From Octopus sinensis (taxonomy: Eukaryota), in the NCBI RefSeq assembly GCF_006345805.1, contig NC_043002.1:79298001-79362000 (forward strand): a DNA stretch of 64,000 nucleotides, read 5' to 3'. The notes below the pieces were generated by a model that was given only the letters and a program-made list of their open reading frames with translations, was not told the DNA's origin and made no database searches. A program made the translations under genes and the position numbers. This document shows, in pieces, positions 7,562-64,000 of this stretch (the first letter of the stretch is position 1; the number at the start of each line of letters is the position of its first letter).

Positions 7562-8178
<617 letters not shown>

Positions 8179-9084: not shown

Positions 9085-10150
9085 CCGTGACCGGTAAATT
9101 CCACTACGGTAACTTACACGATAGGTAAAATTCACTGCGGTATATTCCACTAAGGTAAATTCCACTATGGTAAATTCCACTTGGAAAATAAAGGTCTATA
9201 AAAAACTAATTACACACACCCTTGTTACACACTCCTTAACTAATTATTCGTTAGTTAAATTCCACTCGGAAATTTTCACTATAGGTAAAATTCACTGTGG
9301 TAAATTCAACTACAGTAAACGGCTTGTAGAAAACTTGTTACACACTTCTGAACTAATTAGTTGTTAGTTAAAATATAAGTGTATGCAATTGTTAGTCATT
9401 TTTAACTGAATTTCACTGTACTGCTAATTTTTTTCTATTCATTTTAACTTTGAATTTTGAAACCCTGAACCATAGCAACATTTATAACATCAGAGAAGAA
9501 CAAACGTGAGCTTTGCGACGAAGAGAATCATATATACGACAAGAATGGAGTTAACAGTTGCAAAACAAAAATATATTGGCGTTGTGAACGTTTTTACAAA
9601 GGTTGTCGGGCTAGTGTTTTTGCGCTTTAGCATTTTCACCAATTGAAGACGTTGTCAATGGATTTGAAGATGTGTCTGATGATGAGAACATCCCTTCTGA
9701 GTTTATCCCTTATTTTATCACTTATTGGTACTGTAAAGGGACGCGGTCTTCGTCCACGAAAAGAAACCCCACATTTTCCTATCCAACTCTGGAATATGCG
9801 CGACCGCGAGCAAATAATTCGGTAGAAGGGTTCCACAATGCTTTGCAGTCATCGATAACAACCACACATCCAAATTTGTGGAAACTTTGCCATGCTCTTA
9901 AGACTAAAGAATGCTTAAGCCAGACGAAAATTGCGCACATTCAACGTGGGGACTCGACAAAAAAATAGATAAATAAATAAATAATAATAACAAAAAAAGA
10001 AACAAAGCTCTATCAAATGATTGATGCACGACTGAAGAAGCTCGCTGAGAACTATCAATCTGAAAACGGTCTGCAATTTTTAAGAAATATTGCACACAAT
10101 TTCTCATAAAAGATTTTTCTTTTTTTCATAACTGTATTTTTATGTACTCG
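9085..10150 (+). mobile_element. Internally deleted Mutator-like (MULE) element: FLYWCH N-terminus fused to transposase C-terminus
   Basis: Subterminal ~15-bp repeats ggtaaattccact (9092-9310). Translation gives TSEKNKRELCDEENHIYDK...KIYWRCERFYKGCRA (FLYWCH-like), then ALAFSPIEDVVNGF...PHFPIQLWN...NNSVEGFHNAL...HPNLWK (MULE C-terminal motifs). The DDE core is absent. Confidence 0.85.
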
Positions 10151-17719: not shown

Positions 17720-18886
17720 TATATACAAACATACATAGATACACACATATAGATATATACACACACATGTATTTATATACGCATTTGTTTTTGTTAGTAC
17801 GTCAAGACAGATACGATAGAAGAAAGACAGTGCGGTGTAAATGTATATTTAGTTATCAATTGATGAGCGCATTTAAATATCAATTCCACCGTTATATTAG
17901 CAGAATACAAATCACCTATTATATACAAATAGATCAATGCAACGCTATAGGCTCTATAAACACGCACAGCTCACTCATACAGCAATGTAATATGTACACT
18001 CATACATGCACCAGGCTTGTATACACGCATGCGTTTACAAATGCACGCACTATATATAAATTAATAGACATATTCATAGGTATATTTAAGAAGATATTTA
18101 TGTATATTCTAATGCATGATGTGTGTCAATACATACATGCATACATACATACATACATACATACATACATACATACATACATACATACGTACATACATAC
18201 ATACATACACACGCACACATACACACATATATATGCGTGTGTATATAACTGTATATTACATATATATATGCTTATATATTATATATAATATATATATATA
18301 TATATATTATATATACATATATTATATATATACAAACATACATAGATACACACATATAGATATATACACACACATGTATTTATATACGCATTTGTTTGTG
18401 TTAGTACGTCCAAGACAGATACGATAGAAGAAAGACAGTGCGGTGTAAATGTATATTTAGTTATCAATTGATGAGCGCATTTAAATATCAATTCCACCGT
18501 TATATTAGCAGAATAAAACAAATCACCTATTATATACAAATAGATCAATGCAACGCTATAGGCTCTATAAACACGCACAGCTCACTCATACAGCAATGTA
18601 ATATGTACACTCATACATGCACCAGGCTTGTATACACGCATGCGTTTCACAATGCACGCACTATATATAAATTAATAGACATATTCATAGGTATATTTAA
18701 GAAGATATTTATGTATATTCTAATGCATGATGTGTGTCAATACATACATGCATACATACATACATACATACATACATCTACATACATACATACATACATA
18801 CATACATACATACATACACACGCACACATACACACATATATATGCGTGTGTATATAACTGTATATATACATATATATATGCTTATA

Positions 18887-19519: not shown

Positions 19520-20210
19520 CACATACACACACACATATATATACATGATGAGGCATATATATATGGATATACACACATATGCATAAATACATACATATAT
19601 ACATACATACATACATACATACATAAATACAAACATACATATATGTATACTTATATATTTACATGAATATATATATATGCATTTACATGTATATATATTT
19701 ATATATTATATATATACATACGTATTCATACGCTGCATGACCTGCTACCATACACAAAATATATGCGTAGGCAAATGTGTGTTTCTGTATACACACGCAC
19801 GCGCACACACACGCACACACACATACACACACACATCACACACAAATATACATATATACATGCATCTCTCACTCTCTCTCTATATATATATGCATATATA
19901 TATATATATATATATGCCTTCTGCATCGTTAAGCATATTTTCATATGTGCTTGCATGTCTTACTAGGCGATGAAAACGGCATACAGCTACATACTGCCTT
20001 TTTTGCCGTATCAGCTTGTTACGTTTCTAGAAATAATTGATAGTTCTCTTCTGGTCTACACTATACACTGCTTATAGAAAAGCAATCCGTTTCAACGGAA
20101 TTGTCTTAGATACGCCAAATATATTCAATTCTAACCAATATTTGGTATTGTACATTATATAGATGTATATATATATGTATATATATATATATATATATAT
20201 GTGATATAAT

Positions 20211-20255
<45 letters not shown>

Positions 20256-20287
20256 TATATAGTATATATATATATATATGTATATAG

Positions 20288-20335
<48 letters not shown>

Positions 20336-20430
20336 AATATGTATGTATATATATGTATATATATATACATATGTATTATATATATACATATGTATATATA
20401 TAAGATAATATAATTAATATATTACATATG

Positions 20431-20461
<31 letters not shown>

Positions 20462-20847
20462 ACACACACATATATATATATATACATACACACCACACAT
20501 ATATATACATGATGAGGCATATATATATGGATATACACACATATGCATAAATACATACATATATACATACATACATACATACATACATAAATACAAACAT
20601 ACATATATGTATACTTATATATTTACTGAATATATATATATGCATTTACATGTATATATATTATATATATATATACATACGTATTCATACGCTGCATGAC
20701 CTGCTACCATACACAAATATGCGTAGGCAAATGTGTGTTTCTGTATACACACGCACGCGCACACACACGCACCACACATACACACACACATCACACACAA
20801 ATATACATATATACATGCATCTCTCACTCTCTCTCTATATATATATA

Positions 20848-20883
<36 letters not shown>

Positions 20884-21125
20884 ATATAGCCTTCTGCATC
20901 GTTAAGCATATTTTCATATTCTGCATGTCTTACTAGGCGATGAAAACGGCATACAGCTACATACTGCCTTTTTTGCCGTAATCAGCTTGTTACGTTTCTA
21001 GAAATAATTGATAGTTCTCTTCTGGTCTACACTATACAACTGCTTATAGAAAAGCAATCCGTTTCAACGGAATTTCTTAGATACGCCAAATATATTCAAT
21101 TCTAACCAATATTTGGTATTGTACA
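19520..21125. repeat. Near-identical ~640-bp direct duplication separated by a (TA)n tract
   Basis: catgatgaggcatat...tttggtattgtacat occurs at about 19543-20155 and 20508-21126. The copies differ mostly by single-base indels. Confidence 0.9.
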
Positions 21126-22124: not shown

Positions 22125-22289
22125 TATTATATATGCGTTTATCAATTTGTGTTGCAAGATTCTTGATGCGAAGTCGTGTGTTGAAACAGATATTGTAGTA
22201 TTTCAGTACGGCCACCTTTTTTGTTTTCTTGCCAAATAATCATATGCACTTTATATTCGTTCTTCATTTGTTTATTACTGTTCTTATTC

Positions 22290-22938
22290 TAACTCATGTC
22301 CATTGTCCGGAATTAAGCTTCTCAGCGACACTTTCTGTCTTCGTGTGTGCTCTTTGTCTGCTTATTGCAATGGAATAAGAACAGTAATAAAGAATAAAAA
22401 GTGTAATAAATGAGTGAAGAACGAATATATAGTGCGTGTGTTTATTTGGCAAAAGAAAATATAATGACCACCCCGAAGTGGAACAATACATGATGGTCTT
22501 TCGTGACTGTTCACCAAACATTATCAATTGGCTCCTCGTTTTGACTTGTGGATGGTCTGTCAGAGAGTGCCTCACTCTCAGTTGAAGCGAAACATGTTTT
22601 AATTGGTTGTATCACACCTGGATCCGAGTGTTGCCCATGACATCAACAACAAAGGCTACTGAAACTTCTCCAAGATTCGAGCTTGAGTATAACAAAGGTT
22701 TTAGCAAAACTTGATGCCATATCTCTGCGTTCGGTGATAACGCAAATCAACAAGCACGCACTGCATGTCTCTAGTCTTGGCGTAACAAATGAGAACTGAT
22801 GCGCTCTAGCGGCGTGAAAATTTTCAGGCATGCGTAGAAAGGGTGACGTCACCTCCAACTCAAAGGATTTTGCTCACGCAGCACTAGATTTGGCGGGAAA
22901 AATTAAACTCAGATGCATTTTGAACACACCTCGTATAT
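22290..22938 (-). mobile_element. Mariner 5' fragment (TIR plus HTH domain)
   Basis: TIR TA-cgaggtgtgttcaaaa ends at 22938. Translation gives IKFC*NL...DVMGNTRI...TESEALSDRPSTSQNEE (~RSGRPSTS). Confidence 0.8.
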
Positions 22939-25362: not shown

Positions 25363-25869
25363 ATACATACATACATACATACATACATACATACATACAT
25401 ACATACATACATACATTACATACATACATATACCATTGGATGTGCTTGACGCGCAACAGTTATACTCAATAGGTATTGGCTCTAATGTTAATCACGTTAA
25501 ACTCCCGCTGTCGCTTGTAGACACAAGCTGTCCATAACCGAGGGTTGGCTGTGACGTAATACAAAGAGGAATCGAATTCTTCTTTTTTGATTGTCTGACA
25601 CGACTTTCGCTTCACGCTTGACGTTATGTGTTGCCGGATTCTGAAACACATGTTTTAAATGGAATAAAGGTGTACCAAGGCCCATGTTTTTCTCTCTTAT
25701 TATTGTATGTATAAAAATGTTAGTTAAAATTATTTCGCATAATATAATTCAAAAGAATGTTTTGCGTATTCTTTTTCAGAAACGTTCCTTACTTATATGA
25801 AAATATGAGTGGGGAGTGATTATTTTACTGCTTGACACAGACAATAGGCGAAATATAAAGTCCTTGTAC

Positions 25870-27150
25870 TATATGATAATCATATATAGAGGGCCATGTA
25901 AAACACGTCGAAGGAAATTAGAAAAAGCGTGGTGAGTAGCTGGAAGTATCGTTATACTAGAAAAAGCAGAAGATGCGAGAGAAACAAGTGGTATAAGGTT
26001 CGTTGTAAGCATTGTATAGGCGTCGAAAATTGTTTCTTGCCACATGCCATCATGACCCACCGGAGTGCTAAACGTACACCTCTCAACAAATGCCACCCTG
26101 AAGATCATTTAGATCTATGCTCCAACAAATGTGAGTGAAGTCGACGATGTGTAAGAATTCTACCAAGAGCTAGAGAAATTGCTAGTATACAAATCCATTC
26201 ACACCACAGTGATGGGAGATTTCAACGCAAAGTTTGTAAAGGAACGACAGGGAGAGAAGTATGTTGGTAAACTGGGATCAGGAAAATGAAGCAAAAGAGG
26301 AGAATGTTTGGGTACCATGGCGGAAACAAGAAGACTTTTCATCTGAAACAACACATATAGGAAATAACCTGAAATGAGATGGACCTGGATAACCTCAAAC
26401 GCTCAACGCAAAAATTGACTCCATCCTGGTCGATAAACGACGAATACTGCAGGATGTCCCCTGTGGTAGTGCCAGTCAACGCAGGCAATGGCCATCTTTT
26501 GGTACTGGCGAAGATCGCGATCAATGAAACCAGTAAGAAAACGCTGTGCACATCTCAATGAAGAATCAACGCGTCAAGGCCTTTGATACGTAACAGTTGC
26601 TTGAAGCTATTAAGAAGGAAATTTGGTGTCAACTTGAAGTGCTCGATGAGGACTACGTTTTGCTGTTACAGAAAATTACAAGTTGCATTCGGAAAGCAAA
26701 AACTGTAAGCCAGTTCGGAGGAGACGAAGAAAACGCCAATGAAACGGAAAACTATGAGGAGTAACCTAAAAGATCACCTCAAGTACTCCATTCTCTGCAA
26801 AGCGATCAGATAACATCTAAGAAATGACTCCGAGAATTACAGACTGAAGAAATTGATGCAGGCTGCAGGAGAAAGAAAAGTTTAAGAAGATGCAGAAGAG
26901 GGTGGCACTCTATAGGTTGGAGGTGACGTCGCTTGAACAAGGATAGTTTCAGGGTGACAGACAAAGGAGAAATGTAGGAGGCATGGAAAATCTTCTACAC
27001 CAACCATTTTAAATCACCAGTGAAGCTCATCACCACAAATTGGAATGTGTGCCACATATTCTGATCAGTGAAACCGAAAATGTCTTCAAATTGATGAAAA
27101 CAGACACAACTCCTGGGAAAGATGGCATTACAACAGAGATGCTAAGATTT
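25870..27150 (+). mobile_element. RTE-clade LINE remnant (AP endonuclease to start of RT)
   Basis: Motifs LKII*IYAPT, VMGDFNAK, RWTW, IDSILVD, GNGHLLV (~GSDHRLV) and TPGKDGITTEML, with many stops. Confidence 0.9.
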
Positions 27151-27199: not shown

Positions 27200-28290
27200 T
27201 ACCGTGTATACTTTTTTAAAAATCATTTCATTATTATATGTAAATTTCCTCCTTAATTAATGCCCAGATATTAATTGCGGTAATCAAATGTTTGGCATTC
27301 AGATTAGATTTCAACACCATCTTCACCCTGTTTTGATACGCCTCGCTGAACTTGACTTTCATTTCTCTCTGTAGAATGTCATCCAGCTCCAAAATCCCTA
27401 ATTGTCTTTACCCACTACCGTCCGGTTAACCCATCGTCTCTCGCGATAGTAAGCGCAGTCTCCTGCAGGCTGCTTACTGAGCACTTTGTGATCCCAAATT
27501 CCATACCGATGTCGCTACCACACTTCTGGACTGTGTCGGTTAAGGAATCTATCTGTTTTCCAGATTTCCCAAACAATTTCAGGTCATCCATAAACAGAAG
27601 ATGGTTCAATGATGGGTCTATCTTCCCACATCTGTAACCCATCTTAACTTTGTCTCCTAACGTCTCCTAACGTTCCGAAAAATTGCTTCGGGTTATTCTT
27701 GAACAATATGTTCTCCTCGAACTGCTTATTTCTGTTCACAAATCTTGTGATCTTCTGGCTTTTTGCCATAATACTCTGTTTTACTGTTCTATTTATTACT
27801 GCATCAAACTCGTTCTTCCGTATTTTATTTTTCTTCTCTTATATTTCTCGGTTGGTCTTTTCTATATTCTTCCAGTTTCCTCTTAACCATTGCTCAATTT
27901 TTCCTAGATCTTGCCTTGCCCGCATCATGTCCCTTTCAATGCATCGTTTCCACCATGATTCCTTTTGCTCTACCATCTTTTGATCTTAAGTTTTTAATTT
28001 CTCCTCAACAAGTAGCGCAATAGTTCGGAGAAGGCTCCTTGTTTGTGTTATGTCCTCCGTCTGGATGTATGATATGACAGTTTTTATCTTTTGTGTTACT
28101 TTATTTATCATACTCCTATCTACCCTTCTCATATTCACGGGGATTTTTCTTCTGGAGTATTCATCAAGTCGCTGAGTCGTCTTTGAATTTCAAGGAATTC
28201 ATTATCTAGTTGGTCCATTTCCCCTGCATGTCCACCCACCACACTATCAGGGTTCATTGTATAACGTTCCTGTTCCTCATCCTTAACATA
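27200..28290 (-). mobile_element. R4/Dong-like LINE remnant (RT C-terminal motifs joined to the N-terminal region)
   Basis: LNHLLFMDDLKLFGKS..QIDSL..TV...SDIGMEFGITKC and LGILELDDI. A 10-bp duplication tctcctaacg at 27653-27672 marks the apparent deletion junction. Confidence 0.85.
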
Positions 28291-28344
28291 TCATCATCAT
28301 CATCATCATCATTATTATTATCATTATTATTATTACCATTTTTG

Positions 28345-31214: not shown

Positions 31215-32446
31215 TTATTATTATTATTATCAAAAATTGCTATTGTTGAAAAAGAATTGATAATCATTAATATTTGCTTTGAACGGATGTTTGTATCAGG
31301 GCTTCGTGAAGAATTGGCTTGAAACAAATTTTATATGACAGAAGAAAAAATTATTGTTTTTGATTGTTTTTAAACAAGGGGGCTTCTAAATTTCTGAGGT
31401 TTCATCGCATGATTTTAGAGCGAAAATATAACTCATTTTTCATATTTAATACCTTTTTGTATTTTTGCAAAGTTTTGTTTACGTGTGATTCTATAGGACT
31501 TCTGATGAGGGAAGCGGAAAAAGGCGCTCGTCGTGGACGTGGTAGCGACAGATGCGTCCCCAGAGAAAAGTTTCATAACAACCAAGCAAACACACATACA
31601 TATAAATATGTGTGCGTGAGTATGTGCGTACAAACAGAAAACAATTATGGCAATTAAACTAGCAGAAAACATTTTCAGTGCAGATTTTAAAATCAGTAGA
31701 TTTCCTATCGTTACAAGAGAAAGGCACTGGAGAAGCGTCATCTTCGATAAAAAAAAAGTATGAAAATACATAAGTACTTCACAAAAACAGAGTTTCTTTT
31801 GTTCTTGTATTTCAGCGAGGAAAGGCAAAAAAAAAAAAGACGTATTTCTATGTTTTGAAAAACGAAGGGTGCTTCTCTTTGCCCTCGAAGACATACTTGA
31901 AAGATATGTTGGCCGATTTGTGTTACGACGTATGATTTATTTACAGGATTAAGGCGTATGGTAGTAGTATGTCCGTGGTGTTTAAAACCACGTGTAATAC
32001 AATTTGTGCCTCACTGACTGGGGCAAGACTTATGACATTATATATCTGACGTTTAAACAAGAGCAAGTCGTATGGCAGTATATCTTTGGTTCTTAAAGCC
32101 GAAGAGGAATGAGGAGACGAAACACACAGGTTACGACAAGAGACGTTGGCACAGACGTCGTCACAATATGGGAACATGATACGTGTGGATATAACTCTCA
32201 ATATGTGGTTGGGCGGGGTTTGCATTATTATGCAGGTTTTGATTGTCCGCAAAGGCCACATGTAGTCTATTCTTGACTTGTACCACATTTCGGAGCAAAG
32301 AAGTTAATCAAAATGGTGACGCATGCTAGAATGTCCAGTTGCTACACATGTGAAAGGGTTCCTTCCTGACTAAAGTAATAGGTAGTTCAGGGTTTACATT
32401 TTTGTATTGTTCTCATCTTTATCAGGATAGGCTATACTTGCTGAGA

Positions 32447-32778
32447 CCTCCTTCGGTTATGTCTGACCATGGGATTGCACCTAGAGAGTTACCCTCCCAG
32501 GCATAAGTCCGGGCAGGGTTGTTTATGGAAGACCAGCAGTCGCCCATGCATACCAGCCTCCCCTCTCTATGCTACCAGTGTTATCCAAGGGAAAGGTAAA
32601 GGCCGATACAGCTTGGCACCTGTGACGTCGCAACTCATTTCTACAGGTGAGAGAACTTGAGCAACGTGAAATAAAGTGTCTTGCTCAAGAACGCAACACG
32701 CAGCCCGGTCTGGGATTCGAACTCACAACCTCACGATCGTAAGATCGACGCTCTAACCACTGAGCCATACGCCTTCAT
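32447..32778 (-). mobile_element. tRNA(Arg)-derived SINE family C (OR-like), full length
   Basis: Minus strand tggctcagtggttagagcgtcg..ttACGatcg...gttcgaatccc, then gttcttgagcaagacacttt. Near-identical to 47532-47866. Confidence 0.9.
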
Positions 32779-41886: not shown

Positions 41887-42135
41887 GGACGCGCGTGGCT
41901 TAGTTGTTAGGGTGTCAGCATCATGATCGTAAGATTGTGGTTTCGATTCATAGACCGGGCGACGCGTTGTGTTCTTGAGCAAAACACTTCATTTCACGTT
42001 GCTCCATTCCACTCAGCTGCCAAAAATAAGTAACGCTGCGATGGACTGGCGTCCCGTCCAGCTGGGTAACACATACGCCATTGAAACCGGGAAACCAGGC
42101 CCATGAGCATGGCTAGGCTTTAAAAGGGCGCATTT
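41887..42135 (+). mobile_element. SINE family C variant with a different tail
   Basis: tRNA-like head plus gttcttgagcaaaacacttcatttcacgttgctcca.tccactcagctg shared with family C; the 3' tail is distinct. Confidence 0.8.
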
Positions 42136-44656: not shown

Positions 44657-44994
<338 letters not shown>

Positions 44995-45044
44995 AAACAA
45001 ATGAATAGCAAAGAGCATTACAATGTTAATAGAAATATTCTTAT

Positions 45045-46620
45045 TTAATCATGAAAGAAGCTGGCAAAGGAGAAACCATGGAAATAAAGGACAAGACCTA
45101 TTACAAAGAAAGGGTCTTGGAACTACTAAATGTTCAACAATTCTGTAAAAATGACAAATCAATGCAGACAAACAAACAATGAAAATTTATGGAATAAATT
45201 CAAAAAAGAGTTAAGAGAAAAGGAGTTGGATTACTGAACATAACAAATTTTGAAGCAAATACAGCAACTTTTATAGACTACTGAAAAACTCGTAAATTTA
45301 AAGAAATCCATCACAGCTTAAAGGATCGCTATACACCATGTTAGGATTTCCAAACTGTCTTATTTAAAATGCCGCCCAATTGTTGCAGGAACAACATCAA
45401 TAATACAACAATTAGGTAATTTACTGGATAACATAACAATCCATCATGCAAATTGGTTCTGAGATTCATTAGAGACGATATGGATTTCCGTAAGCACGTT
45501 CCAGAAATAGTAAATATAAAGACGATCCTAGTTAGAATCGACGTAACCAGCCTCTACATTAATATCCTCCATGGATTAAGATTGAGAGCAGTAGAATTCT
45601 AGATAGATAAAGAACCACACAGAATTAGGAGCGATTCTCAAGGGAATTTATACTAGGTTTACGATTGGTACTAGAAAACATCTACTTCGTTGATAATACC
45701 TTTATATAAAATGGACGCCAGTGGGCTGTTGCTTCCGCGTTTACATTATTGATGTGATTCTTAGTAAATAAACGACGCCTGATGCGAGAGTACTTCTGAT
45801 CAGCACTTCTAATCCTATTTAAATTTTAATTGGAAGTTTTCTCCTTAAGCCAGAGATTGGGGTTTCTTTTACGTTTATTGTGGCATGATTTAAGCTTTTA
45901 CTGGATGACTGTTTCATATTTAGGAACTGAAGTAAAGAAGACCTTACAAGATATCTTCAGTTCATAAAAAGCATTCATGAACCGATTCCATTAACACTGG
46001 AAATGAAGGAAAAGAATTTTCCCTTTCTATACACATTGGTAATGAAAGGAAATGAGACTCTTACAACCCATGTCTAATGCAAGGATACGGACACTCGCCA
46101 ATACTTAGACTTTAGGTCTTGCATCCATCCCGTAAAGAAATAAACCAGTTAATATGTCAAAGCAAATATATTTAATAGTTGCAGATTCAAGTGGACGAGG
46201 CAGACGGCTGGTAGAACTAAAATGATTTCTTCCGTGAAAAAAAAATACTTGGAAAACGTTGTAGATCCCAATTCCTGATTTCTGGAGAAGTCCTGACAAT
46301 GAATGAGAGGAGACAAATAGAAATTTTCCATTTGTGGTTAGCTGTAATCTCACTTCTTACATTCGGTCAAACGCTATTTAAAATTTTTACATCAATCATC
46401 AAATCTAAGACAAATAATTAAAGTGTCAATAATTATTTACTGCCGAGGGCAATTTGCATATCTTAAAAGACATTTAATGAAGACGAAAATTACGGCAAGA
46501 AAAGAAATAGTGCAGGTAACAAAATGGGGGTCAAAAACCTTCGTCGAGGAAACTGCAAATTGACTGAATTTGGTAAAACTAAAAGATTCAAGAATGTGAA
46601 GGAACTGAAGTTTAATGTAC
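45045..46620 (+). pseudogene. Penelope-like element reverse transcriptase, heavily decayed
   Basis: Ordered PLE RT motifs across frameshifts: KEAGKG..MEIKDKTYY (~KEADKG), NFYRLLK (~FYGLPK), RPIVAG, FIRDDMDF, DVTSLYINI, LVLEN.YF, LDDCFIF, FPFL, KDTDTRQYLDFRSC (~KPTD..QYL.F.S.HP). Confidence 0.88.
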
Positions 46621-46699
46621 ATATGAAATGCAAAAGAAAGACTCTCAATTAATGCACCACACCAATTGCGTCTGTGTTTGCAAACACAGACACAGAAGC

Positions 46700-46898
46700 A
46701 GAAGGACACTCACGCACGCATATATATGACAGACTTCTTTCGGTTTCCGTCTACCAAGTTCTCCCACCATGCTTTTGGTCGGCTATAGGAGAAGATATTA
46801 GAGGAAGCTATAGCAGAAGACATTTGCCCAAGGTGTCACGCCATGGAACTGAACTCGAGACCATGCGGTTCAGAGGCAAGCTTCTGATCACACAGCCA
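46700..46898 (-). mobile_element. SINE family A, 5' half
   Basis: cttctttcggtttccgtctacc...ttgcccaaggtg...cacacagcca. Confidence 0.8.
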
Positions 46899-46899
46899 T

Positions 46900-47157
46900 A
46901 TATTGGGTTGCTGCATAATTATTGCGGCTATTTTTCAACAAATTTTATTCAACAAAACGAATTACAATATTTAACAAAAGTATCTTTAAATGACGGTCTG
47001 ACCGTTTGCCAACCAAATGAGAAGCAGTAATTGAAGTAGATGGTGAATATGCTTCGGAATAATCATTTCAAGATGTTTTTGTTTACATGTTGTTATTGTT
47101 TTTGTTGAAGAAAATTTGTTGAAAAAGAGCCGCAATAATTATGCACCAACCAAATAT
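46900..47157 (+). mobile_element. Mariner-derived MITE with ~45-bp TIRs
   Basis: TIRs tattgggttgctgcataattattgcggct... and ...agccgcaataattatgcaccaaccaaata. The interior retains the transposase end LPTK*EAVIEVDGEY. Confidence 0.88.
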
Positions 47158-47364
47158 ATGTATGTATTCTACCTTTTTGGTTTTTAATTGCTTTAGCCAC
47201 CTATATTATAACATATTTAATATATCATAATATTAATTAATCGTTATTATATATTTTATTGTATGTTTATATATATATATATACCAACGGTAGTGCCCCA
47301 GTATGGCCACAGCTTTCGGGCTGAAGCATTTTTAAGGATTTAAGGATATATATATATATATATA

Positions 47365-47480
47365 TACGAGGGGTGTATGAAAAATCTTGAGCCTCAAAAG
47401 AATAATCAAAACAAAATATGGTACAAGACTTCAAGGCTCAAAGGACTTGAATGCTCAAAACTTTTCATACAAGGTGTAAA
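47365..47480. mobile_element. Small mariner-type MITE remnant
   Basis: TA-cgaggggtgtatgaaaaatcttgagc pairs imperfectly with gctcaaaacttttcatac. Confidence 0.55.
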
Positions 47481-47531
47481 AAATAGTACTCGAACACCAG
47501 AGGTAGAGTAATGTATAAATACATAGGGTAA

Positions 47532-47866
47532 AGACCCCCTTCGGTCATGAATGACCATGGGATTGCACCTAGAAAGTTACCCTCCTAGACACAAGTCCGG
47601 GCAAGGTTGTTTATGGAAGACCAGCAGTCGCCCATGCATACCGGCCTCCCCTCTCCACGCCACCAGTGTTATCCAAGGGAAAGACAAAGGTCGATACAGC
47701 TTGGAACCAGTGACGTCGCAACTCATTTCTACAGCTGAGTGAACTGGAGCAACGTGAAATAAAGTGTTTTGCTCAAGAACACAACACGCAGCCCGGTCCG
47801 GGATTCGAGCTCACAACCTCACGATCGTAAGCTCGACGCTCTAACCACTGAGCCATGCGCCTTCAT
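47532..47866 (-). mobile_element. tRNA(Arg)-derived SINE family C, full length
   Basis: Near-identical to 32447-32778. Confidence 0.9.
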
Positions 47867-47934
47867 AAATACATACATAAATACATAAATACATACATAC
47901 ATACATACATACATACATACATGCATACATATGT

Positions 47935-47998
<64 letters not shown>

Positions 47999-48002
<4 letters not shown>

Positions 48003-48290
48003 GTAAATGTAATATGTGACAATTATTTGGTAGCCATGATAAAACTCCGAGTTTCGGATGCCGAGGTGAAAATGCACGCCGCCATCTCTTCAGTTATCCG
48101 GTCAGCATTTTTCCGATGGCCTGATAAGTGAAGTGAAGGCGACGTGGATTTCCACCTCGGCATCCGAAACTCGGAGTTTTATCATGGCTACCGAATAATT
48201 GTCACATATTACATTTACAGATAAATTCCTCTATTTTTAATAATATCGAGGTCTCCTTCATTCTTTTGTTGTCTTACCATTTTTATCAGT
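47999..48290. mobile_element. (TA)n-flanked pLTR-like module with an inverted 5' duplication (hairpin 47999-48222)
   Basis: About 70-bp near-perfect outer arms and imperfect inner arms. The right arm continues as a T-rich tail to 48290. Confidence 0.85.
48038..48098 (-). ncRNA. Type I hammerhead-like fold in the left arm of the hairpin
   Basis: gauaa-CUGAAGA-gaug...cauc-c-GAA-ACUC-G-GAGU-U-uuauc: 5-bp stem I, long imperfect stem II, near-palindromic stem III. Confidence 0.65.
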
Positions 48291-48311
48291 ATATATATAT
48301 ATATATATATA

Positions 48312-48527
48312 CATTTCAAAATGTGACCTCGTGTGTACCGTTGGCGATTTTTTTCCTCTGTCTTCTCTTCTCTGGATCTTTCCTTCTCCTATGTTTCTGA
48401 CGAAGAGCTCCGCTCGAAACGTTAAACCTTCCTTCTTTCCTTCTTTCATGAGCGTCCAATAATAGTATATTTGTTCCACGTCCTCGCGTTATTGTGTTTT
48501 TTTGTGTTTTCTTGTTTGGATTAACTA
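48312..48527 (+). mobile_element. pLTR-like module with a minimal hammerhead, inserted in (TA)n
   Basis: Same family as 44657-44876, with TA runs on both sides. Confidence 0.85.
48394..48426 (+). ncRNA. Minimal type I hammerhead ribozyme motif
   Basis: uuu-CUGACGA-a-gagc-ucc-gcuc-GAA-ACGU-U-aaa, identical to 44758-44790. Confidence 0.75.
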
Positions 48528-48623
48528 TATATATATATATTTGTATGTCTGAATGCATGAATGTGTGTATGTGTGTGTGTGTGTGCGTGTGTGTATGTGT
48601 GTATATACATGCGTGCGCACCTA

Positions 48624-48654
<31 letters not shown>

Positions 48655-48812
48655 TCCGAAATACTTTTCTTATCCGACATGCAGTTCGAAAAAGCCCGCC
48701 ATTTACCGAATATATGATTTATAAACATTCCATGTGCTTGGTCAGAGTGAATAGATGTCTGTTCGTCTTCGTTAGGTAAGGTTGGTGGTTTATTTATGAT
48801 GTGTTCAGAATC

Positions 48813-48869
48813 AGTTCTGCTGATGATCATAGACGTAAGTTAAATGTGAAATCACGGTGATACAGAACT
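48813..48869 (+). ncRNA. Type I hammerhead ribozyme fold (in TA-flanked module 48655-48992)
   Basis: Stem I agttctg/cagaact (7 bp); CUGAUGA; stem II cat/atg plus gac-GUAA-gtt with a U.U first pair; GAA; stem III AUCAC-G-GUGAU; H17=A. Confidence 0.78.
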
Positions 48870-49681
48870 AAATTCATTTTTTAAATGTCTTGCTTTGAAG
48901 AACTGCATTAGGTATGATTAGTGTAATTTTGGTAGTAATGACTTTGTCCCTCTTAGTGTGAGGCATTTATGTGTAATAATGCCCTCTATACAATATATAT
49001 ATATATATACGCGCACATAGGCGCGCACGCATGTACAAGTACCATCTTCCGCGTTGTCAATGCAGTACCCATGGTCTGGAATCTCCCTTTTTCGGTTGAG
49101 AGATTGTGTTGTGTAAAAGCATTGAACAATATGATTAAAAGTAATAAACCTACCAGAATTTCAGTGTCGTCATTTAATCAAAACACGGGCACCGATCTCT
49201 TGGTAAGAATGACTGAGATGATTATGGAAGTTGGTATTTGAAGTTAGGCTCAAGAGAGATTTCAATATTTACAGCAATAACTCCAATACTATAGTATTTC
49301 CCATAACACCTAATAATTATTACATTTTTTTTCATCATGGTCCATGGAGCCAGTACTTATTTGGTAATGTCCTTAGCGGATCAAGGATAAATAAATAATA
49401 CACTCTGCTAGAAAGGTCACCCGGTTTCATGCAGAGATTTTATGTTTAGCTCCGCGGAAGCAAATTCATATTGCAGAAGAGATTCATAATGCGTCATTGT
49501 TTTACTGACGAATCGCTCAGCATCTAAAATTTCACACATTTCAAGTTCGTGTTACGGCGTCGAAGTTCTGCAGAAGCGTTTACTTTGGGGTTGCTTCCTG
49601 TCATGTTCTTCCTTGACAAAGTTAAGCATTTGTCCACGTGATAGAATTTTATCTAATAACTAATATCGTAAAAATCAATTA

Positions 49682-50470
49682 AGGCGGCGATCTGGCAGAA
49701 ACGTTAGCACGCCGGGCGAAATGCTTAGCAGTATTTCGTCTGCCGCTACGTTCTGGGTTCAAATTCCGCCGAGGTCGACTTTGCCTTTCATCCTTTCGGA
49801 GTCGATTAAATAAGTACCAGTTACGCACTAGGGTCGATGTAATCGACTTAATCCGTTTGTCTATCCATGTTTGTTCCCTCTGTGTTTAGCCCCTTGTGGG
49901 TAGTAAAGAAATAGGTATTTCGTCTCCCGCTACGTTCTGAGTTCAAATTCCGCCGAGATCGACTTTACCTTTCATCCTTTCGGATAAAGTACCAGTTATG
50001 CACTGGGGTCGATATAATCGACTTAATCCGTTTGTCTTTCCTTGTGTGTCCTCTCTGTGTTTAGCTCCTTGTGGGTAATAAAGAAATAGTTATTTCGTCT
50101 GCTGTTACGTTCTGAATTCAAATTCCGCCGAGGTCGACTTTGCCTTTCATCCTTTCGGGGTGGATAAATTAAGTACTAATTACGCACTGGGGTCGATGTA
50201 ATCGACTTAATCCCTTTGTTTTTCCTTGTTTGTCCCCCCTGTATTTTACCCTTTGTGGGTAGTAAAGATATAAGAAACGTTAGCACTTTGGGCAAAATGC
50301 TTAGCGGCATTTCGTCCGTCTTTACGTTCCGAGTTCAAATTCTGCTACTTTGTCTTTCATCGTTTACAGGGGTTGATAAAAGAAGTAGTATTTAAGCACT
50401 AGATTCAATGACATTGACTATCTCCCTCTCCCAAACTCGCTGACTTGTACCAAAATTTAAAATCAATATT
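49682..50470 (+). mobile_element. SINE family B with a tandemly reiterated body (3 units of ~175-184 bp plus a fourth diverged copy)
   Basis: Units tatttcgtc...aaaga(a/t)ata begin at about 49732, 49916 and 50091. A further copy starts at about 50273. Confidence 0.9.
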
Positions 50471-50689
50471 GTAAAAAAACAACTAGAGGAAAAAAGTTGA
50501 AATAATTGTTTCATTAAATTCAAATAACGAGGAACATAAACAAGCAAACAAAATTTGCTTTAGAAGTGTTGAGATGTCTTAGAAAGTTAAAGAAGTGATT
50601 TTAAATTCTCAAACGCAGGATAATGCTAATAATATAGCCTGAACAGGATAAGCTACCCCTATTTTGCAGAAAAAAATGTTGGCGGCCAG

Positions 50690-51483: not shown

Positions 51484-51915
51484 AATGGTCGTACAAAAGT
51501 TTTCGACTTCCTCACATAAACCAAACAAGATACAATGTTTTAAAACAGAAAAATGCCTATAATGAAAATTTATTACATAACGTTCATTTCAAGAAGTTAC
51601 TGTAGATTGTTAATATTTCGCGTGGCTTCCCTTAGCTCGAATGGTTGCTTCAATGCACCGTGGAAGAGATGCGTACAAATCCATCACCATCCTCATAGGC
51701 ATGAGATGCCATTCACTGCGGCTGAGCTCCCACAATTCTTCAAGATTGCATGGATTCTTCTGGCGATCTCTTCTCTTTAGTTTTGTCCACATTTGCTCAT
51801 TGATAATTAAGTCAAGACTTTGAGCTGAGCAATCTTTCAATACCGTAACACCTTCATCAGCCAAACTCTGTTGTGTTGCACAGGATGGAGATCCGTCTTT
51901 GTTTTGCAGTGTTTC
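51484..51915 (-). mobile_element. Tc1-like (DD34E) transposase C-terminal remnant
   Basis: LQNKDGSPSC...VLKDCSAQSLDLIINEQMWTKLK...NLEELW...EW...LYASLPRCIEATIRAKGSHAKY* (~WPAQSPDLNIIENLW...G.TKY). Confidence 0.88.
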
Positions 51916-51924
51916 TCCCCTGTT

Positions 51925-52653
51925 TATCAATTTTTTCGAAGGCTGAAACGAAGGAACAGCGTGCTTCCACGAAATTCTGTTTTCTACTGAATAAAATGGC
52001 GGCCGAAATAGTTGTCATACTTCAGACAGCATACGGGCCCGCTGCCATGAGCAAGACACAAGTCTACGAGTGGTTTTCACCCTTTAGGAATGGCCAATTG
52101 TCACTTAATGACCAATCTCGTTCAAGGCGACAGTCGACCTCCCGAACGAATGAAAACACCATAAAAAAATTCACGAACTGATCTTGGAAGGCCGTCACCG
52201 AACAAATGTCGAACTTGTCGATATGACTAGTGTGTCCTGAAGCTCCTGCCAACAAATTCTGAGCGAGGAATTTCGAATGAAAGGAGTTGCAGCAAAATTT
52301 GTACCTCGTCTGCTCACGGAAGATAAAAAGCAATCACGACTGCATGCGTGGCGTGAACTCAAAGAACAACTGGAAGTTGATCCGAACCTTTTTTTCGAAG
52401 GTCATCATTAGTGACGAAAGCTGGTGCTAGGGAATTTGCAGATTTGGCAAAGATTAAAAAAAAAAAATAACCGAAGCGTTAAGAGGCATCATTTCGCAAG
52501 AGATCCAGCACTGCTTCGACTAGTGGAAAACGCACCTAGACTGCTGCATTGCTTCAAATGGAGAATACTTTGAAGGTGATAAAAGTGTAAACATGTAAAA
52601 GTGAATAAAATAATAATGTAAAATTTCTGGTTTCGTTTGGGCGCCCATCGTAT
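51925..52653 (+). mobile_element. Internally deleted mariner
   Basis: EQRASTKFCF...MSKTQVYEWF..F.NG...RSRRQSTS...VAAKFVPRLL...KVIISDESWC, then a jump to CIASNGEYFEGD. The right end is ...catcg-TA. Confidence 0.9.
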
Positions 52654-53365: not shown

Positions 53366-53453
53366 TATATGAATAAAAAATGGAGTTAACGCAGGTTTAA
53401 ACAAGTATTTTTACTTGTTTAAACCTGCATTAACTCCATTTTTTATTCATATA
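53366..53453. repeat. Hairpin with 42-bp arms and a 4-nt loop, abutting (TA)n
   Basis: tatatgaataaaaaatggagttaacgcaggtttaaacaagta-tttt-tacttgtttaaacctgcattaactccattttttattcatata, one mismatch. Confidence 0.92.
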
Positions 53454-57935: not shown

Positions 57936-57942
<7 letters not shown>

Positions 57943-58069
57943 AAAGTTTCTTTTAAAAGAATATTTGTATAGTGTTCAAATATAAGTGGCATTTTCCTTG
58001 TTACTGCCTTTCTCTGTCTCTCTTGTTTACACTTGTGGGTTCGAGGTCGTTGTGAATTATACACACACA

Positions 58070-58163
<94 letters not shown>

Positions 58164-58289
58164 ATAGAATTCACAACGACCTCGAACCCACAAGTGTAAA
58201 CAAGAGAGACAGAGAAAGGCAGTAACAAGGAAAATGCCACTTATATTTGAACACTATACAAATATTCTTTTAAAAAAACTTTTCTTTTA
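57936..58289. repeat. Near-perfect ~350-bp palindrome: ~125-bp arms around a self-complementary (CA)n(TA)n(TG)n core
   Basis: 57936-58060 is the reverse complement of about 58163-58289, with two 1-nt indels. Confidence 0.95.
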
Positions 58290-63313: not shown

Positions 63314-63562
63314 AGACCCCTTCGGTCACGAATGCATACCAGCCTCCTCTCTCCACGCCACCGATGTCATCCAAGGAAAAGGCAAAGTCCAATACACCTT
63401 GGCATCGGTGAGGTCGCAATTCATTCCTACAGCTGAGTGAACTGTAGCAACGTGAAATAAAGTATCTTGCTTAAGAACACAACTCGCAGCCCGGTCCAGG
63501 ATGCGGACTCACAACCTCACGGCCGTAAGCTCGACGCTCTAACTACTGAGCCATGCACCTTC
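63314..63562 (-). mobile_element. SINE family C with an internal deletion
   Basis: Colinear with 47532-47866 but lacks ~85 bp between two atg microhomologies. Confidence 0.85.
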
Positions 63563-64000
63563 ACTATATATATGTATATATTTATATTTATTCATATATA
63601 CGCATATTCATACACACAGATATATCCATATACATGTATATGTTTGTGTATATATATTCATGTATTTATGTGTACATGTATATATGTAGAGAGAGACAAT
63701 GTATCCTTTATTCATATACTATATTACTTGTTTCAGTTATTGCACTGTGGCCATGATTGTGCATCTCCTTAAAGGTTTTCATCCATCAAATTGAACCCAG
63801 TACCTACTTTTTAAAGTATGGTGCTCATTCTACTGGGGGTTTTACTGAACTTCTGAATGATAGGATGTCAGCAAAACGTCACCGTTGTCAGCAGAGCAAA
63901 AAATCGTCCAGTATATAGTTATATACTGTATTTAGGGATAAATAAGTAACATATAAAGAGCTATATAGTTATAGAGAATAACTTTATATCCAAGTATAGT

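Follow-up and report, generated by a model that had tools for sequence, protein, structure and literature searches.

Introduction

Hammerheads of Penelope-like elements (PLEs) are described in PMC4209133 as having a palindromic helix III, lying in the pLTR and occurring mostly as solo, truncated copies. Some of them form close pairs on opposite strands, and cleavage is weak and dimer-dependent; the dimer model for PLE hammerheads is reviewed in PMC6765202. Monomer cleavage is described for fungal and protist PLE hammerheads whose helix III is large, as in Serpula (PMC4209133). PMC8557442 and the preprint 10.1101/2021.04.23.441226 describe inverted-repeat insertion units with hammerheads near their 3' ends and a microsatellite bias that is linked to the Neptune linker.

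Retrozymes, mussel ones included, measure 150-450 bp and have a GC content below 45% (PMC7229834). They have been tied to pLTRs, and solo monomers are described as well; release of a unit takes two hammerheads, and cleavage was seen in 1 of 9 predicted dimers (10.64898/2026.07.22.740005). The axolotl hammerhead HHR_Amex2, which has U·U at the base of helix II, reaches 22% cleavage in 1 h as a monomer and cleaves better as a dimer, and some mussel retrozyme circles are an exception in that their predicted fold leaves the hammerhead unfree (PMC7229834). Both U10.1-U11.1 and a palindromic helix III have been reported in natural hammerheads, and U·U variants are active (PMC3088659). Our literature search, whose coverage largely excluded subscription papers and supplements, found no octopus or other cephalopod hammerhead or retrozyme; for cephalopods, the sole connection was to Naiad PLEs, in which canonical hammerheads are absent. 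Here we analyze a hammerhead motif in a 64-kb stretch of microsatellite-rich Octopus sinensis DNA (the window).

Results

A type I hammerhead motif on the + strand

The motif and its parts are located as follows.

48813..48869 (+): whole type I hammerhead motif, found by descriptor scans, with a weak Rfam Hammerhead_1 match at 48814-48868
48813..48819 (+): 5' strand of helix I, forming 7 Watson-Crick bp with 48863-48869
48820..48826 (+): conserved core CUGAUGA (positions 3-9), read from the sequence
48827..48847 (+): helix II region, with U48827·U48847 at 10.1/11.1
48848..48862 (+): G12-A14, helix III and H17, where H17 is A48862 and the triplet is AUA

This is a genuine type I hammerhead-type motif: the CUGANGA core, the GAAA box (48848-48851) and an NUH triplet are all present around a three-way junction, and helices I, II and III can all form (7/3/4 bp) with the open end at helix I, at a constrained folding energy of -6.4 kcal/mol. 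AUA conforms to the NUH rule, and positions follow the hammerhead numbering. Helix I, the closing pair of which has a probability of 0.74 in the fold prediction, is predicted to extend through a 1x2 internal loop into 4 more pairs (48808-48811/48872-48875). Helix II is made of 3 bp (48828-30/48844-46), a 1x2 internal loop and another 3 bp (48832-34/48839-41), and is capped by a GUAA loop of the GNRA type (48835-48838). The 10.1-11.1 position, usually G-C, is U·U in this motif, and this does not exclude type I membership because U·U is a tolerated natural variant (PMC3088659, PMC7229834). Helix III (48851-48861) is a 5-1-5 palindrome that gives 4 bp and a 3-nt loop in the monomer and 5+5 bp between two copies. 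Cleavage is predicted between 48862 and 48863. The first-pass annotation of this DNA had listed the CUGAUGA and GAAA boxes, a 7-bp stem I, the GNRA loop, the AUA triplet and a predicted cut after 48862, all of which were borne out at those coordinates. Its stem III of 4-5 bp holds for the 4 bp of the monomer; a fifth pair would enclose a single base and can form only between copies.

Chance expectation and Rfam scores

To estimate chance occurrence, the 64-kb window was dinucleotide-shuffled 1,500 times with simple repeats held in place. None of the 1,500 shuffles reached helices I/II/III of at least 7/3/4 bp, and 3 reached at least 6/3/4; a helix total of 14 or more, 14 being that of the motif, came up in 17. 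A helix I of at least 7 bp, with helices II and III unconstrained, appeared in 134 of 1,500. From these counts the motif is unlikely to be a chance match at the level of the window (about 0.1-1%), a figure that applies to one window whereas a genome scan tests many. A strict descriptor run on both strands of the window gave 2 matches, the motif with its core at 48820 and a poor one at 51860.

The comparison with Rfam Hammerhead_1 (RF00163) that had been proposed for this motif returned 12.7 bits at 48814-48868 (E 1.9, 101-nt query), below the gathering cut-off of 34 bits. The core boxes and helix I align with the model, whereas helices II and III misfit it. At the gathering cut-off Rfam gave 0 matches in the whole 64 kb, and no hammerhead was among the 37 matches at E ≤ 10 in 47000-50500; the neighboring minimal hammerheads were missed as well, both in the 64-kb window and in 47000-50500. 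We regarded the 66 Rfam matches at E ≤ 0.001 in the window, like the 37 in 47000-50500, as microsatellite-driven miRNA and snoRNA noise, and discarded the snoRNA matches over the motif (12.5-16.4 bits vs cut-offs of 36-60). In its folding the 57-mer does not stand out from shuffled versions (z -1.6, with 16 of 200 as good).

Predicted folding of monomer and dimer

In the secondary-structure model the motif alone is predicted to adopt mainly an inactive fold, with weak monomer activity. U·U had been taken for its only defect. Helix II is also just 3 bp long before the 1x2 internal loop, and a slipped 5-bp register (48827-31/48845-49), which the two U residues make possible and which pairs G12 and A13, is favored over the active one both in energy (-3.2 vs -0.4 kcal/mol) and in pair probability (0.945 vs 0.016). 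Moreover, the minimum-energy monomer buries the CUGAUGA core, which pairs with the 5' strand of helix III to give a rod, and helix III has a pair probability of 0.003 in the predicted monomer. For the 57-nt motif the active fold costs 6.4 kcal/mol relative to the minimum, a penalty that was the same in four contexts, and for 48780-48900, the construct proposed in the first-pass annotation, it costs 9.7 kcal/mol. The active fractions predicted by the model are about 1e-5 and 1e-7, respectively. Monomeric self-cleavage, for which the motif had been put forward, thus finds no support in the predicted folding, given these penalties and the palindromic helix III. As an argument against monomer activity the modeled penalty is no more than suggestive, since 59 of 400 random sequences sharing this architecture were at least as unfavorable (median 3.6 kcal/mol). 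Slow monomer cleavage may still occur, since the penalty is not extreme and the model omits tertiary contacts and Mg2+.

The helix III 11-mer forms no hairpin in isolation, and its duplex with a second copy is predicted at -11.9 kcal/mol. Co-folding of two copies of the motif gave -31.9 kcal/mol vs -25.6 kcal/mol for two monomers, and CUGAUGA was freed in the dimer. The slipped helix II is preferred in the dimer too (-31.9 vs -26.3 kcal/mol for the fully active dimer). A heterodimer with the hammerhead at 48397 was ruled out, as the palindromes differ.

The motif lies in a 338-bp island with inverted flanks

The motif is part of a segment enclosed by (TA)n runs and inverted-repeat arms.

48606..48654 (no strand): left arm of a 43-nt inverted repeat (48606-48648) and left (TA)n run (about 48632-48654)
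48655..48992 (+): 338-bp hammerhead-bearing island, 35.5% GC, between two (TA)n runs
48993..49035 (no strand): right (TA)n run (48993-49009) and right inverted-repeat arm

With 338 bp, 35.5% GC and one type I hammerhead, the island is a non-coding unit of retrozyme size and composition, and its + strand holds no open frame of more than 40 codons. The cut site is 130 bp from the 3' (TA)n run, taking the element ends from the TA runs, so the island has the position near the 3' end and the microsatellite insertion that are described for PLE pLTR hammerheads. The inverted-repeat arms, with 1 mismatch in 43 nt, contain the TA runs and reach beyond them, and their 24-nt non-TA part occurs at just these two places in the window. 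The inverted flank may or may not date the insertion, because (TA)n-centered inverted duplications exist elsewhere (57938-58287).

The predicted island RNA is Y-shaped, with an outer stem (core arms 48679-48705/48882-48908), a long, G·U-rich hairpin (48711-48806), the hammerhead arm and a small 3' hairpin. The + strand folds with a z of -3.9, and 0 of 100 shuffles were as good. Compared between strands, z was -3.4 (+) vs -0.8 (-) for the linear fold, with 15 vs 5 G·U pairs, and -3.2 (+) vs -1.0 (-) for the circular one, which in this model is at most compatible with a circular RNA. When 102 windows of 250 nt were surveyed roughly, with 12 shuffles each, the island came only 6th, and its - strand had a z of -2.5. 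Strand-biased folding that matches or exceeds that of the island was seen, with 12 shuffles, at 25751-26000 (+, z -4.7), 31751-32000 (-, z -4.4) and 22251-22500 (-, z -5.7).

Masked self-BLAST, which we used to detect repeats in the window, detected the island only once, its best non-self match having an E of 0.74. The locus has a single island copy and no tandem arrangement of at least two hammerheads. No relatives of the island were found in phages, and plasmids gave only five 31-nt matches (E 0.3). The sole pattern match in GTDB by eye lacked both helix I and helix III and looked like coding sequence, and was treated as chance. No tRNA gene was found, nor an RNA polymerase III A-box in the island; one loose B-box-like heptamer in the island was disregarded.

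Hammerhead modules elsewhere in the window

We examined five modules in the window, with cores at 48820 (+), 48397 (+), 44787 (-), 48093 (-) and 7786 (-); this set omits the modules at 51860 (-) and 14083 (+). That at 51860 passes loose descriptors, but its helix III is non-palindromic and only 2 bp long and a Watson-Crick helix I is lacking, so it was rejected. Besides the island, the modules belong to the following repeats.

48312..48525 (+): short repeat that carries a minimal hammerhead (core 48397), with ACGU as helix III and an additional A following A9
44660..44875 (-): inverted, 81%-identical copy of the 48312-48525 repeat (core 44787), matched at 44692-44872
48001..48290 (-): fold-back element between (TA)n runs, with arms at 48001-48220 that are 87% identical (core 48093)
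7602..8056 (-): (TA)n-flanked element that contains a hammerhead-like module (core 7786) and two direct repeats of 79% identity

Helix III is palindromic in 5 of 5 modules, and each lies 42-151 bp before a microsatellite at its 3' end. The motif with its core at 48820 shares the dimer-capable palindromic helix III of PLE pLTR hammerheads, and its helices I and III are the longest of the 5. It had been counted as the third module within 1 kb: the cores at 48093 (-), 48397 (+) and 48820 (+) do span 827 bp, though on two strands, and self-BLAST detected no similarity of the island to the 48093 and 48397 modules.

The 48093 hammerhead has a palindromic 4-1-4 helix III and GUU, and its active fold costs 3.8 kcal/mol, less than that of the motif with core 48820. 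Within the 48001-48290 element, a complete core is found only in the - strand arm, and the + arm carries a 70-bp extra tail. The 7786 module has U-A at 10.1/11.1, a palindromic 8-nt helix III and GUC, with no helix I by descriptor; the 7602-8056 element looks like a partial tandem. The repeats at 44660-44875 (-) and 48312-48525 (+) bracket the PLE fossil described below, in the geometry of an inverted-pLTR/ORF/pLTR unit. That both begin at almost the same base suggests a non-autonomous family with fixed ends.

A Penelope-like fossil and the coding content of the window

One coding remnant is located as follows.

44997..46661 (+): decayed Penelope-like (PLE) ORF with RT, thumb and linker, and many stops and frameshifts

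The ORF ends where the GIY-YIG domain begins, interrupted there by a dispersed repeat near 46660. An exhaustive protein search with the fossil gave 61 matches, and tblastn also maps it to 44997-46661; it was undetected by a word-based protein search (7 candidates), in the PDB and by Pfam on 8 fragments. RVT_1 was present in 8 of the 8 relatives scanned and GIY-YIG, at the C-terminal end, in 3 of 8, and the relatives include proteins of Mytilus edulis, Solemya velum and Octopus sinensis. From these similarities we read 44997-46661 as a Penelope-like element, probably of the Neptune or Nematis type to judge by the cysteine linker of the relatives. It lies 2 kb upstream of the island on the same strand, with other insertions between them. 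Matches to an endonuclease profile built from 5 proteins end near 46660, and the island + strand has none. Nothing physically ties the island to the PLE ORF, because the island encodes no recognizable endonuclease tail; as the 3' end that this PLE lacks, the island is a possible but unproven candidate.

Among 305 unmasked frames of at least 50 codons, 3 had Pfam matches below E 1e-3, namely RVT_1, a mariner HTH and FLYWCH. The mariner match is a Mos1-type HTH fragment at 51849-52178 (+). The FLYWCH zinc-finger fragment at 9469-9627 (+), above the Pfam cut-off (E 4.9e-6) and 39 kb from the motif, may be either a transposase remnant or a host exon. A non-LTR reverse-transcriptase fragment at 27418-27666 (-) has as its best match an Octopus vulgaris protein (82% identity over 59% of the query). 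No clear host exon emerged around the motif among these 305 frames, a scan that short or unannotated exons may escape. The suggestion that the motif could cut a host pre-mRNA is unsupported because no such exon was found: only 3 of 305 frames had a Pfam match, one of them 39 kb away.

Other repeats

At 57938-58287 there is a 121-bp inverted duplication, 99% identical and centered on (CA)n(TA)n(TG)n, which is either a recent fold-back event or an assembly artefact. Palindromic elements at 46897-47160 (arms 74% identical) and 53371-53448 (92%) are MITE-like or fold-back. Local duplications at 17768-18739 and 19733-21124, 95-98% identical and microsatellite-rich, are recent or assembly artefacts. 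Three copies of a 175-bp unit (85% matches) form a tandem array at 49683-50470, and the dispersed repeat of this unit also occurs at 28342, 33292, 35738, 36218 and 60180; it presumably resembles octopus SINE-type repeats. Another dispersed repeat, at 47532-47863, has copies at 32444-32775 (92%), 63332-63563 and 41891-42019.

Comparison with described hammerheads

Metazoan PLE pLTR hammerheads (PMC4209133; Neptune-type pattern in PMC8557442) resemble the motif in their type I topology, palindromic helix III and long helix II region, and resemble the locus in lying near a 3' end, solo, at a microsatellite target, with a PLE fossil and minimal hammerheads nearby. Their helix I is 4-5 bp long whereas that of the motif has 7 bp, their helix III is minimal whereas here it is a 5-1-5 palindrome, they have G10.1-C11.1 in place of U·U, and no ORF is attached here. 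Metazoan non-LTR retrozymes such as those of axolotl (HHR_Amex2) and Mytilus (PMC7229834, 10.64898/2026.07.22.740005) are like the island in being about 340 nt long, below 45% GC and non-coding, in having a strongly self-paired RNA with one type I hammerhead, and in that solo monomers are described; HHR_Amex2 also shares U·U at the base of helix II (PMC7229834). The island differs from them in its lack of a tandem repeat, its longer helix III, and its setting of (TA)n runs and inverted flank. The PLE hammerheads of fungi and protists (PMC4209133) are also of type I with a helix III able to form in one copy, but those are efficient monomers, whereas the palindromic helix III of the motif is predicted to lose out to competing pairings. 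By analogy, the motif would work like the described PLE and retrozyme hammerheads.

Discussion

We interpret the island as a solo, 5'-truncated PLE pLTR or PLE-derived retrozyme monomer that is predicted to be a poor cleaver as a single copy, and we give this interpretation a probability of roughly 0.6. In the parent element, copies arranged in tandem in a single transcript would pair with each other via helix III, the paired copies would cut out a unit-length RNA, and a PLE RT/GIY-YIG protein would copy this RNA into (TA)n targets. The island itself is probably a passive remnant, because it has no partner in the window and its predicted fold is blocked. What argues for this interpretation is the above-chance motif, the palindromic helix III and 3' microsatellite position shared by 5 of 5 modules, the PLE fossil nearby (44997-46661), and the freeing of CUGAUGA on dimer co-folding. 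Against it stand the lack of an island copy in the window, phages, plasmids and GTDB, and several features of the hammerhead: the G10.1-C11.1 pair that PLE minimal hammerheads typically have is missing, the extra base that follows A9 is ambiguous, helices I and III exceed those of most metazoan PLE hammerheads in length, the Rfam score is far under the cut-off, and the slipped helix II is favored even in the dimer. The 43-nt inverted flank is left unaccounted for.

The alternatives differ in whether they see here a functional RNA, a DNA element or no ribozyme at all. If the motif were a working monomeric ribozyme, loop II or the helix II internal loop would dock on the helix I internal loop, co-transcriptional folding would attain the active form, and every + transcript through the locus would be cut. 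The 7-bp helix I with its internal-loop extension, the 4-bp helix III and the intact core are what such a ribozyme would have, a penalty of 6.4 kcal/mol or more is found in 59 of 400 random sequences built on this architecture, activity is known for U·U variants (PMC7229834, PMC3088659) and monomer cleavage for fungal and protist PLE hammerheads in which helix III is large (PMC4209133). We nevertheless consider this unlikely in view of the predicted active fraction (about 1e-5, or 1e-7 for 48780-48900), the pair probabilities of helix III (0.003) and of the active helix II register (0.016), and the lack of a clear host exon in 305 frames. A chance match in AT-rich DNA, which would suit the 12.7 bits from Rfam, the unremarkable folding of the 57-mer (z -1.6, 16 of 200 shuffles as good), the lack of an island copy and the 17 of 1,500 shuffled windows with the same helix total, all the more as a genome scan reads many windows, is very improbable to our judgment: none of 1,500 shuffles reached 7/3/4, and the palindromic helix III and 3' microsatellite position, which the scan did not require, match the four other modules.

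The island may instead be the unit of an active, dispersed, non-autonomous retrozyme-like family, the RNA of which would circularize, with the blocked fold selected as a switch to protect the circle. Only the + strand of the island folds well (z -3.4 linear and -3.2 circular vs -0.8 and -1.0; G·U 15 vs 5), it is retrozyme-like in size and GC, mussel retrozyme circles with an unfree hammerhead in the predicted fold are on record (PMC7229834), and the 1 mismatch in 43 nt of the inverted flank hints at a young event. This is nonetheless doubtful, a shade more so than a monomeric ribozyme, as there is no tandem copy while unit release needs two hammerheads (10.64898/2026.07.22.740005), the fold ranks just 6th of 102 windows with the - strand at -2.5 in that 250-nt test, and the inverted flank may have arisen apart from the insertion (compare 57938-58287). 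The flank could also mark the ends of a 430-bp MITE-like DNA element (48606-49035) with 43-nt terminal inverted repeats and a captured hammerhead fragment. The inverted ends are near-perfect and TA-bounded, and mariner-type remnants are present in the window; yet the arms are microsatellite-like, the left one continues into host TG/TA repeats, and the arm sequence is found nowhere else in the window, which leaves such an element as improbable as a chance match.

A solo pLTR or retrozyme monomer at a single locus matters little, since many invertebrate genomes contain thousands of retrozymes and of hammerheads at PLE termini. What it would contribute is a likely case from a cephalopod, with a palindromic helix III of unusual length and a U·U base in helix II, of a form that is missed by Rfam. 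More speculatively, and with rather little probability in our view, the island may be a member of a young cephalopod retrozyme-like family, inserted as single units into (TA)n, with a dimer-activated, Y-shaped RNA of about 340 nt and with insertions that leave an inverted flank duplication. The hammerhead would then be held off by its own helix III strand and by the slipped helix II. The inverted flank could inform on how PLE-type insertions are resolved at (TA)n, and if the blocked fold were conserved across a family, it would offer a testable model for a question raised in PMC7229834, namely how animal retrozyme circles avoid cutting themselves.
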